A stretch of DNA of 64,000 bases from Longimicrobiales bacterium (GCA_965202805.1 OZ241869.1:3488001-3552000), one strand, 5' to 3'. Positions 43,209 to 53,943 are shown, counted from the stretch's first letter. Numbers and translations: made by a program. The notes: generated from the letters alone by a model not told the origin.

Positions 43209-43232
43209 CTAATCCTCAAGCACGAGTTCCAG
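43209..43232 (-). pseudogene. Displaced original 3' end of the hydratase gene (LELVLED*), including the left att core
   Basis: Minus strand reads CTG GAA CTC GTG CTT GAG GAT TAG; the first 9 nt equal the in-frame LEL codons at 53167-53175. Confidence 0.7.
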
Positions 43233-43351
43233 TCCTTGCAAATGCCGTCCAGCCAAGTTCAGGGGAGTCCCGTAATGCAAGTTAAGATGTGGTGCTTGAA
43301 TAACTTATGTTACACTGCCGTGTCAGGACGTTCGGTACGTTCCAGTACCGA

Positions 43352-43373
43352 AAGGGTGACCAACAGGGTGATT
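43352..43373 (+). repeat. Putative integrase arm-type sites, left end
   Basis: AAGGGTGACC (43352) and CAGGGTGATT (43364); a third copy AAGGGTGACC at 47042 was displaced by the IS. Confidence 0.6.
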
Positions 43374-43416
43374 GCAAAGGGAATTACATACCTAAGTAAC
43401 CACGGAAGGGCTAAAT

Positions 43417-43635
43417 ATGTCGAAGCGTGATATCCCTGCGGGCCACATAGATGTTACGGGAGTATGCGTACCATTTAAACATCACGAAACGGGAGAACCG
43501 GTCCTAACGCCGTTTGAGAGACTCGGTCCAGATATCAGAGCCATTCTTTGTCAGGAGGTTGCCGAGTTCCTGCGCCGAGGTGGAGACCCGGGAATTACGG
43601 CGACAAATAAAATGAGAAAGTTATGCGATCCATGA
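43417..43635 (+). CDS. Hypothetical 72-aa IS passenger protein
   Basis: ATG preceded by GAAGGG; no recognisable domain; its 3' end overlaps the 3' end of the HNH gene. Confidence 0.4.
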   Translation: MSKRDIPAGHIDVTGVCVPFKHHETGEPVLTPFERLGPDIRAILCQEVAEFLRRGGDPGITATNKMRKLCDP

Positions 43636-43867
43636 TGTTCTTTTCCTTATGACACGTGTTGCAAAGAGCTTGCAGGTTGTCCTCATCATCAGTCCCATCA
43701 GCAAATAGTGGCCTGATGTGATCTATCTCGAGCGGAAACTCGCTATTTCGGCGGGGACATCTTTCTCCCTTGCTGTGGTGTGGACATATATACTGGCCCA
43801 TGCATTGACACTGATAGTCGGCACGGATTCGTACAAGCTCCTTCGTGATTTCTGATAGATCAGACAT
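43595..43867 (-). CDS. Small HNH endonuclease
   Basis: RADYQCQC...LEIDHIRPLFADGTDDEDNLQALCNTCHKEK is an HNH motif with Zn-binding cysteines. Confidence 0.88.
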   Translation of the reverse strand: MSDLSEITKELVRIRADYQCQCMGQYICPHHSKGERCPRRNSEFPLEIDHIRPLFADGTDDEDNLQALCNTCHKEKNIMDRITFSFYLSP

Positions 43868-43894
43868 AAGCTCGCCCGTTGGGCTACCAACGGG

Positions 43895-44116
43895 TCACTT
43901 GTTCTCCGCTATACGATGCTGCGTACTCATAGCACGCAGTCCGTTGACGATGACCGCTGCTACAGATCGTGGTGCGCTATCGTCCACCAACCGAGTATAC
44001 GCTAGCGCCGCCAACATGCGCTCGGAGCCGGTGACATTGTATCCGCTCCACGACGCTCCGCTTGCCACGGACGCTAGCGTTTCTTCCAATAGTGTACGGC
44101 CTTTCTGGTTGGCCAT
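43895..44116 (-). CDS. Hypothetical 73-aa IS passenger protein
   Basis: Strong SD (GAGGAG) before ATG; co-oriented directly upstream of the HNH gene. Confidence 0.6.
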   Translation of the reverse strand: MANQKGRTLLEETLASVASGASWSGYNVTGSERMLAALAYTRLVDDSAPRSVAAVIVNGLRAMSTQHRIAENK

Positions 44117-44210
44117 GATTTTTCTCCTCTCTCTTTCCCGGTGTTCCGTATCTAGGGCGCACCAAGACTAGCTGGACAGCCCCCGATGCGCTACCCCCCT
44201 TGCCGACGAC

Positions 44211-52107: not shown

Positions 52108-52454
52108 TGCTCCTCCCGAGTGAGTGGGTCCGAAGAGTCACCACAAGACCGAGATTGCTGCGGTTTGCCCGGCTGGCGCAAGGGGAAAGCCACAGGAGTT
52201 GTTGGGGGCGCAGCCGGATTCGCGCGCTGAGTAATCCTTCCTGCTGCAGGACGCTAGATGGCTGCTGGATCAGAACGGCAGCGACGAGTTTGCGCAGGAG
52301 CCATGTTTGTGAGGTTCTCGTGGAGCGGCGGTGTCCCCGAAGGGCACCCGATGTCGGAACGCCATTGCACGGAACCATCGGTTCCGCCAGCGGCGCCCCG
52401 GCGCTTCCTGCCCTCTGCCCTAGACCGGCGGTATGTGTGCGGCGGTGCCCCCGC

Positions 52455-52520
52455 CGCCTCGGCGCCGCCCCGGCCTACGGGACGGTGTGAAGCCGTCCCT
52501 CTAGCCGGGGTCGAGCCCCC
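52455..52520 (+). repeat. Second structured repeat family, copy 2
   Basis: CCGGCCTACGGGACGG-N7-CCGTCCCTCTAGCCGGGGTCGAGCCCC, followed by a hairpin and a GGAGG SD-like site. Confidence 0.6.
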
Positions 52521-52576
52521 CCTTCCCACCCGGACGGAAGGAGGGACAAACCCAACGGCTTGAGCACCCAACGGTG

Positions 52577-52870
52577 CTACGGGCCAGCGCCTCGGTCCAC
52601 CCGGCTGCGGAAGTGCCTCGACGGCTGGAAGACAGCTGCAACACGCGGTGGAACCGCTACCGGCTCGCCGGTTCTGGGATTGCACGCCGTGCGGGCCTTG
52701 CGGTGCCGAACCTTGAAGGTGCCGAAGCCCCGGAGCTCGATGCGGTCGCCTTGAGCGAACGCTTCCCGCACGGCATCGAGGAAGGCGTCGACCACCAGCC
52801 CGCAGTCCCTCTTGGTGACTCGCGGTCCGATCATATCGGCAGCCTGCTCAACGAGGTCGGCTTTGGTCAT
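52577..52870 (-). CDS. HU/IHF-family DNA-binding protein
   Basis: MTKADLVE...IELRGFGTFKVR.RKART..NPRTGE.V.VP...VFQPS. Confidence 0.93.
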   Translation of the reverse strand: MTKADLVEQAADMIGPRVTKRDCGLVVDAFLDAVREAFAQGDRIELRGFGTFKVRHRKARTACNPRTGEPVAVPPRVAAVFQPSRHFRSRVDRGAGP

Positions 52871-53080
52871 CCCTTTCTCCTCGCGGTGAAGTGCGGCCAA
52901 GTCCATGAGTTCCATTATGATAACTTGCAGGCCGTGGCCTCCGCGAAGAATCTGGACTGCCGCTCCCGCCGAGCCCGCGTGGTTACGAGTCGCCATGGGA
53001 CGAGACCGGATCCGGTGGAATGATCGGACGGCAAACGGGGAGACGGGACCAATCCGTGGTATTCCGCTACCAACCGCGCA

Positions 53081-53110
53081 AAGGGTGATCGCAAGGGTGA
53101 CTCAGGGAGG
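53081..53110 (+). repeat. Putative integrase arm-type sites, right end
   Basis: AAGGGTGA at 53081 and 53093 (12-bp spacing, as on the left), followed by an AT-rich tract and the att core. Confidence 0.6.
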
Positions 53111-53130
53111 GTTCATAATATCCTAACTGA

Positions 53131-53943
53131 TTAGCACAATATAGGTTTATGTAGTATTTCTGTTCGGAGTTCCAGGCTTGGGAGATCCACTCCGTGGGCC
53201 TCGACCCGCCAGCGCTCGCCGGGAGCGAGCGGCTGAAGCGCGGTCATGGTCCCGGTGCTGACGACGCGCTCGCCCGGCGAGTGCGTCGGATTCTCGAAGT
53301 TCGACCGCAACCGCGGGACGAACTCGAGCGCCTTGCGCGGATGGCCGAGCACGGCGCTCCCGCGTCCCTCCGCCACCGCCTCATCGTTCCGGGAGAGCCG
53401 GACCTCGAGCCGGTCGAGTCGTTCGATCGATTCCGCGAACCCGGCCGCGGCGCGAGGGACGCGCGGGCCGACGACCAGCGCGGCATGCAGCGCGAAGTCC
53501 GCCACCGAGTCGGCGGGCGTGAGATCCCAGCCGTAGTGGCAATCAACGACTTCGAAACCGATGGCCATCCACGCGGGGCGACTCCAGTCCGGCGCGCCCC
53601 CTTCCGCCTCGATCCCGAACACGACCTCGACCTCGATGCGCGGCGCGCAGAAGCCGGCCAGCGACAGCGCGGCCACGGGTGTCGCGGTCCGCACCGTTCG
53701 GTCGTAGACAGGCCCCAGAATCGGCTCGGCGATCCCGAACCGCGGCCAGACGGTCCTGTTGGTGAACCCCACCTTCCACCCGGCGCGGCGGTACCCGCGC
53801 TCCCGCAGGCGCCGGTCGAGGGCCGCGCCCACGCGGTACGCGCCTTCGAGGTCGAGCCCCGTTACCTGGTTGGTCGGAGCGGGAGTGGTGATTCGCCGGT
53901 CGCGGGCCGCCAACATCGCGCGCACAAGTTCGGATTCGGTCAC
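53131..53943 (-). CDS. 2-keto-4-pentenoate hydratase-like (FAH superfamily) protein with island-derived C-terminus
   Basis: GWKVGFTN, PRIEVEV, FEVVD, SVADFALH, VLGHP, VSTGTMT. The last 11 residues come from island DNA. Confidence 0.85.
   Translation of the reverse strand: MTESELVRAMLAARDRRITTPAPTNQVTGLDLEGAYRVGAALDRRLRERGYRRAGWKVGFTNRTVWPRFGIAEPILGPVYDRTVRTATPVAALSLAGFCAPRIEVEVVFGIEAEGGAPDWSRPAWMAIGFEVVDCHYGWDLTPADSVADFALHAALVVGPRVPRAAAGFAESIERLDRLEVRLSRNDEAVAEGRGSAVLGHPRKALEFVPRLRSNFENPTHSPGERVVSTGTMTALQPLAPGERWRVEAHGVDLPSLELRTEILHKPILC

Follow-up and report, generated by a model that had tools for sequence, protein, structure and literature searches.

A small integrative element in the last codons of a hydratase-family gene of a Longimicrobiales bacterium, probably a stray from a lineage that prefers coupling-protein genes

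We analyzed a stretch of 64,000 nucleotides from a Longimicrobiales bacterium (GCA_965202805.1 OZ241869.1:3488001-3552000; the whole stretch is called the window here), in which a 9,943-bp island lies in a gene of the MhpD/DmpH-like hydratase/decarboxylase type. The island is a small integrative element with its own tyrosine integrase and attachment (att) ends, without a relaxase or a complete conjugation module, and its insertion into the last codons of the enzyme gene is real. The event was probably a one-off stray at a secondary site, by a lineage whose preferred site is formed by the Walker B codons (DEYQ) of a type IV coupling-protein gene.

An earlier note, made from the sequence alone, had described a 9-bp core flanking the island, and both copies were found where the element meets the host gene (Table 1), with identity between them stopping at 9 bp on either side. 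Joining the flanks gives a hydratase frame that ends in PSLELVLED, while in the integrated state it ends in PSLELRTEILHKPILC, also in agreement with the note; locus L003 of a relative matches the rebuilt junction over 38 nt. As that note had further proposed, the target is not a tRNA gene (none lies at either element end), its core is short and the insertion leaves the gene unrestored, with 4 C-terminal residues swapped for 11. As the 9-mer is common (3 copies in the window versus 0.47 expected, and 119 in the 4.02-Mb genome), the repeat alone is weak evidence, and it is the comparison with relatives that carries the case. Parts of the island show a drop in GC content, to 0.55-0.63 from about 0.68.

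An orthologue of the hydratase gene, 68-91% identical, is present in 15 of the 18 other genomes of the genus, and all 15 copies are uninterrupted and end at the same position, with a tail of the form G-L-[ED]-[LIV]-x-L-x-x. The C-terminus is exactly LELVLED, as the note had expected of island-free relatives, in three of them, and 13 are followed by an orthologue of the 142-amino-acid (aa) open reading frame (ORF) of the left flank, as judged by eye. This ORF has no Pfam or NCBIfam match. An empty junction was also found in contigs of two sponge sequencing runs from two other studies (X3 and X4), in which position 43109 is joined to 53167 with a short stretch between; these contigs carry 22-23 differences over about 1.3 kb of flank and are about 98% alike in the right flank. 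The integrated form appears at even depth in runs X1 and X2, which probably include the source sample and are not independent of it. There was no excision or circle joint among the 15 of 61 joints listed, which come from assembled contigs only, where rare variants drop out, and no RNA run among the listed sequencing-run holders.

The doubled arm-type repeat of the element, used as a search pattern, matched in 35 of 401 genomes of the order, all of them in the same family, with 0 matches for the backwards control. We tallied 33 left junctions of relatives with integrases about 79-94% identical to that of the island, a few of them partial or interrupted; recognised duplicates were removed, and the tally excludes L150/L177 and L170, which have no left end, as well as the probable duplicate L172 and the ambiguous L183. 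With target classes assigned by eye, 10 junctions are at the coupling-protein DEYQ codons, 12 at the start of a mobC/nikA-like gene (4 of these judged from the left flank only), 1 at the 3' end of an integrase gene and 10 elsewhere (amine oxidase, 2; one intergenic spot, 2; adenosine deaminase, 1; others, 5), which places 23 of the 33 in genes of other mobile elements. None of these junctions is at a tRNA gene or at a hydratase gene, and one tRNA was seen across the 33 loci, 2.6 kb from the junction. A mimicry of the tRNA T-loop, considered because the left junction looks T-arm-like by eye, was rejected, as no relative inserts at a tRNA.

Mapping the insertion sites of close homologs, as the note had suggested for a putative new attB, led away from the hydratase: L176 (94%) and L057, L058 and L200 (all 91%), whose integrases are the closest among those with a visible left junction, are all inserted at the DEYQ codons. 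Another six (84-86%) occupy this site in reverse orientation. In a tree of 41 rows (midpoint root, no clade test), the integrase of the island is sister to that of L176 (99/94), among the forward coupling-protein elements. Within the 19-row clade to which it belongs, the first lineages to branch off are the reverse coupling-protein ones. All six coupling-protein insertions that we examined leave the gene unrestored, the frame ending within tens of codons after DEYQ, so that non-restoration of the target is general in the family. The titles of the closest hits are mostly metagenome-assembled genomes of Longimicrobiales/Gemmatimonadota, plus one of Bryobacterales, and partial holders are mostly sponge metagenomes. 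The best integrase match in a plasmid collection was 47%, with no close characterised relative there. A literature search, mostly of open literature at abstract level, found no publication on this integrase clade, although the TIGER database and the supplements on helper-embedded phage-inducible chromosomal islands (HE-PICIs) may list members already.

Two other kinds of target were observed in the family. A sister lineage (L047 in G017:C21; L174 and L147 in G090:C158 and C46) occupies the same flavin amine-oxidase codon in two genera, so that this codon is a stronger candidate than the hydratase site for a chromosomal attB adopted recently. L062, L226, the right ends of L142, L154, L158, L159, L166 and L191, and others are at the last codons of other integrase genes; these insertions share the same arm repeats and give nested or tandem arrays.

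The genome under study holds an intact copy of the coupling-protein target gene (2,038,704-2,040,743; 77% identical), which passes the Pfam cut-offs for TrwB_AAD_bind and TraG-D_C and has TrbL, VirB8, NikA/MobC, relaxase, ArdC and integrase genes as neighbours, near a tRNA-Ile. Its site is empty, and no other in the genome matches at 15/15. Nine sites match at 13/15, among them that of the hydratase, which has a mismatch in the overlap and another in the right flank. Empty primary sites are widespread, with 107 listed in 50 of the 314 family genomes. The resident conjugative element (L234, G000:C1, about 2,026,000-2,046,000) also carries two integrases and a pair of N6-methylase and specificity-subunit genes, and it may have arrived later than the island, a possible reason why its site was not taken.

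Tyrosine integrases swap strands over a 7-bp overlap, and a match is normally required, according to the available text of two reports (bioRxiv 2023.11.06.565760; PMC10111431). Across the clade, the element-side bases at the crossover are conserved, and the 7 bases between differ by target group, the overlap of the reverse coupling-protein group being the reverse complement of that of the forward group. We can propose that the island entered by helper-driven conjugation, mobilised by the resident conjugative element, and that its integrase chose the site by the 7-bp overlap plus weak flanking core sites, a choice by which the element would sometimes land at look-alikes. The recombination at the hydratase look-alike would then have been a single, non-restoring event, after which the host overlap would have become fixed in both att sites, and the island may have been trapped later, when an IS1595-family element inserted between its arm repeats and the start of its integrase gene.

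Several observations weigh against this proposal. The primary site stands empty in the same genome. A matrix built from 29 host half-sites rates the hydratase site as mediocre: it is equalled or surpassed by 76 genome sites that have exactly the primary overlap and by 1,244 whose overlap has one mismatch, and the -3 base of its right half occurs in 0 of the 29 half-sites. Given this poor score, the hydratase is to be seen as one tolerated site among many and not as the best second choice. Furthermore, the host overlap is present at both junctions and differs from that of the relatives at 1 of 7 positions. A coupling-protein allele with the matching Phe codon was considered as the source of this overlap and rejected, since it occurs in 0 of the 107 listed empty sites, with a pattern that has fixed flanks, may miss divergent alleles and missed the genome's own copy. 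With the host overlap at both ends and no listed allele to supply it, repair or a prior overlap change must be assumed; mismatch repair, an earlier stray insertion, or excision followed by re-entry would each serve, and none was observed. Finally, the tallies were made by eye, the tree root is a midpoint, and the elements are related to one another, so the junction counts are not independent.

The host overlap at both junctions also speaks for the first of the alternatives, namely, that the hydratase 3' end has become, or is becoming, a new dedicated attB of this sublineage, as the earlier note had allowed. An excised circle would be programmed for the hydratase, since both att copies carry its overlap; moreover, the clade overlap differs between target groups while the ends stay conserved, a related group has hit the same amine-oxidase codon in two genera (L047; L174/L147), and for the mv4 integrase the overlap sets specificity in vitro, in the portion of that work at hand (bioRxiv 2023.11.06.565760). 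Still, we regard this as unlikely: the site is occupied in 0 of the 15 other orthologues, and 0 of the 33 related elements use it. Its overlap has 967 occurrences in the genome, and at 138 of these the flanks are at least as good; in addition, the IS1595-family element parts the integrase from its arm repeats. The note's other suggestion, a promiscuous integrase, held in so far as strays account for 10 of the 33 junctions, and failed in that 23 of the 33 are in preferred mobile-element genes. The note had recognised neither the coupling-protein gene as primary target, nor the empty copy of this target in the genome, nor the nested transposon. In its general form (a transposon-like enzyme with no preferred target, the conjugation-gene hits reflecting abundance or tolerance), it could draw on the only near-invariant host half-site position being a G at -2 (28 of 29), on the 10 junctions at unrelated sites and on L175 (G397:C233; integrase interrupted), whose junctions differ at two positions of the overlap, which suggests that exchange across mismatched sites occurs in the clade. 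It is difficult to reconcile with 10 junctions that share a codon triplet of a single gene, despite two orientations and two phyla (L059 being the Bryobacterales record), with 12 at the mobC start, and with target groups that track the integrase tree (with no formal test), and we consider it quite improbable.

Least credible of all seems a selected or regulatory insertion, in which the enzyme would be altered by its new tail, excision would serve as a switch, or read-through transcription of the hydratase operon would express the element's gene for a protein like integration host factor (IHF). The hydratase and IHF-like genes are indeed co-oriented, the latter 260 bp downstream, the native tail length is conserved in the 15 orthologues, and the integrated form is at even depth in X1 and X2. 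Nevertheless, the occurrence is single, the predicted fold is unchanged except for a floppy tail, and the orientation is not conserved, since the host gene runs in from the opposite end when the element lies forward in a coupling-protein gene. A stray insertion by an element with a preferred target elsewhere seems the best account.

Regarding the enzyme, the gene matches the MhpD/DmpH models of NCBIfam with E values of 8e-17 to 6e-12 and is homologous to the solved NahK/MhpD (E about 1e-13). Its scores of 46-62 bits are far below the equivalog cut-offs (350-409), so "hydratase" is a family label and not an assayed function. An AlphaFold2 prediction of the new-tail form, from a 30-row alignment, gave a mean pLDDT of 88.5 for the best model (the five models range from 88.5 to 42.1), with the last strand still formed at residues 257-262 and pLDDT below 50 at residues 265-270. 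By this prediction, the rewritten tail is floppy and the fold stays intact. The next host gene is convergent, so that no host gene downstream is deprived of transcription, and the insertion is probably near-neutral for the host. Separately, the codon just upstream of the core (53176-53183) is Ser here and Gly in all 15 same-genus orthologues. A distant hydratase homologue, uninterrupted, was also seen between the right end and the left end of two family elements (G090:C158:4922-5551, L174).

Table 1. Features of the island and its flanks, in window coordinates
Feature	Position	Strand	Remarks
Host ORF, 142 aa, membrane-protein-like, left flank	42676..43104	+	Convergent with the hydratase gene in island-free relatives
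Displaced native hydratase 3' end (VLED and stop)	43209..43223	-	
Left core copy, 9 bp	43224..43232	+	Putative 7-bp overlap 43226-43232, deduced from homologue ends
Element left end	43233..43378	+	121/146 bases identical to L176
Left doubled arm-type repeat	43351..43372	+	Centre 132.5 bp from overlap centre
IS1595-family transposon with passenger genes, 3656 bp	43379..47034		8-bp target duplication, 43371-43378 and 47035-47042
HNH endonuclease ORF, IS passenger	43595..43867	-	Pfam HNH 8.8e-11
IS1595-family transposase	44273..45226	+	
tRNA-like gene, IS passenger, right after transposase	45314..45388	+	6-nt anticodon loop; Rfam 56 bits
Peptidase M48 ORF, IS passenger	45465..46316	-	
Third arm repeat, just before integrase	47040-47051		
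Tyrosine integrase, 388 aa	47054..48220	+	Arm-DNA-bind_3, Phage_int_M and Phage_integrase, all above Pfam cut-off
Cargo ORF, 377 aa, like PADLOC defence candidate PDC-S11	48322..49455	-	E 1.2e-10, residues 13-208
Non-coding stretch	49808..50097	+	71% alike DNA just upstream of resident element's coupling-protein gene
Non-coding module (candidate oriT)	50400..50740	-	50400-50560 aligns with DNA upstream of mobC genes
Cargo ORF, 442 aa	50779..52107	-	Lipoprotein-like N-terminus (by eye); no family match
IHF/HU-like protein, family core gene	52577..52870	-	Near right end
Right doubled arm-type repeat	53080..53101	+	Same orientation as left; centre 81.5 bp from overlap centre
New hydratase end from element DNA, 11 codons and stop	53131..53166	-	
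MhpD/DmpH-like hydratase/decarboxylase gene, FAH fold	53131..53943	-	270 aa when integrated
Right core copy, 9 bp	53167..53175	+	Putative overlap 53169-53175

The order of the element is att end, arm repeats, integrase, cargo, a module resembling an origin of transfer (oriT), IHF-like gene, arm repeats and att end (Table 1), which is the layout of its relatives once the insertion sequence (IS) is removed. The integrase has its R, K, HxxR, H and Y motifs at residues 236, 263, 322, 347 and 357, and its arm-binding domain belongs to Arm-DNA-bind_3, which we take to be the former DUF4102. An AT-rich box in the left end may be the integrase promoter; a sigma-70 scan did not report this presumed promoter. 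The IHF-like gene is found in 15 of 18 complete homologues, in 12 of them 294-303 bp from the right end. The module at 50400-50740 is a candidate oriT, judging from its similarity to mobC-upstream DNA (63% mean column identity, with similarity in 17 of the 18 homologues). No match to the resident MobC, relaxase or coupling protein was found in the island or in the 18 complete homologues. GC-rich non-coding modules (49754-50097, 50179-50542 and 52423-52531) are repeated at several other places in the genome, including 483,500, 1,012,800 and 1,697,300-1,698,400, some near integrase remnants. Two SusC/SusD-like gene pairs flank the region at 35339-40037 and 56569-60837, as recognised by eye.

More than one third of the island is the IS1595-family transposon, assigned by its DDE transposase (NF033547, 200 bits versus a cut-off of 75), a terminal inverted repeat 97% identical over 33 nt and the 8-bp duplication. 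It lies 19 bp ahead of the integrase start codon, with the second arm repeat on one side and the third on the other, and only for this reason does the integrase seem central. Run X4 contains a related IS-free joint, from 43373 to 47038. The tRNA-like passenger is possibly a decayed tRNA-Arg; it was considered as an att remnant and rejected, as it lies inside the IS.

Taken by itself, the locus is a secondary-site insertion of an ordinary kind, predicted to affect the enzyme little, and the family to which it belongs matters more. These elements split the coupling-protein, mobC or integrase genes of conjugative elements, which thereby appear to be disabled until the insertion is excised. With the same ends, integrases that are 79-94% identical and different 7-bp overlaps, they go to different essential genes of conjugative elements, the overlap targets being the coupling protein in either orientation, the mobC start and the integrase 3' end. 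We can entertain, tentatively and as a view more doubtful than the stray insertion itself, that the island is a snapshot of natural retargeting, in which a stray that fixes the host overlap in both att sites creates a new specificity with the protein unchanged. If this were true, the family would stand to conjugation as helper-embedded satellites stand to phages, with its own IHF and a naturally reprogrammable integrase. As these are natural att variants whose target changes with the 7-bp overlap, target acquisition by an integrase becomes testable with few plasmids.

Among known systems, HE-PICIs are one of the closest parallels; the available part of their description (Tommasini, Mageeney and Williams 2023, PMC10111431) reports a tyrosine-integrase clade that repeatedly took new sites in helper-element genes, with subclades that match site groups and 28 off-target events. 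Both are clades that target helper genes and have off-targets. In the attP of HE-PICIs (same source), a doubled motif occurs twice in the same orientation, at 81+/-2 and 132+/-2 bp from the centre. The spacing here appears to agree, at 81.5 and 132.5 bp measured centre to centre (their measure is not stated in the available text); the motif sequence is different. The helpers of HE-PICIs are lambdoid prophages, entered at late genes, while here the targets are coupling-protein, mobC, integrase and host genes; the island also differs by its IHF-like gene and oriT-like module, and by the absence of AlpA and replication genes, as far as Pfam detects them among the 10 island ORFs scanned.

Firmicutes also have small integrative elements that break a conjugative element's coupling-protein gene and leave it unrestored: in the part of PMC5704250 consulted, the integrative and mobilizable elements (IMEs) Tn6104 and IME_Sco1050_traG_site1/2 disrupt traG/VirD4 of integrative and conjugative elements of the Tn5252 superfamily. 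Those use serine recombinases, whereas the present family has a tyrosine integrase with Arm-DNA-bind_3, is found in records of Gemmatimonadota and Acidobacteriota and enters a single site in either orientation. Secondary-site integration by site-specific elements is likewise known for SGI1 and NBU1, from extracts of PMC2297512 and PMC5704250. SGI1 is also a tyrosine-integrase element found at a look-alike site, which, in those extracts, differs at one position of the putative 7-bp overlap; its secondary site is recurrent and intergenic, unlike the hydratase site, which occurs once and inside a gene. Last, the integrase combines arm-binding, core-binding and catalytic domains with the R-K-H-R-H-Y residues of IntSXT/P4-like enzymes, and resembles the IntSXT subgroup and the P4 cluster in its N-terminal DUF4102-type arm-binding domain. 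These clusters insert at tRNA genes, prfC and other conserved genes, as the accessible portion of Smyshlyaev et al. 2021 (PMC8138268) indicates, in contrast to the relatives of the island, with 0 of 33 junctions at a tRNA and a preference for the genes of other mobile elements.

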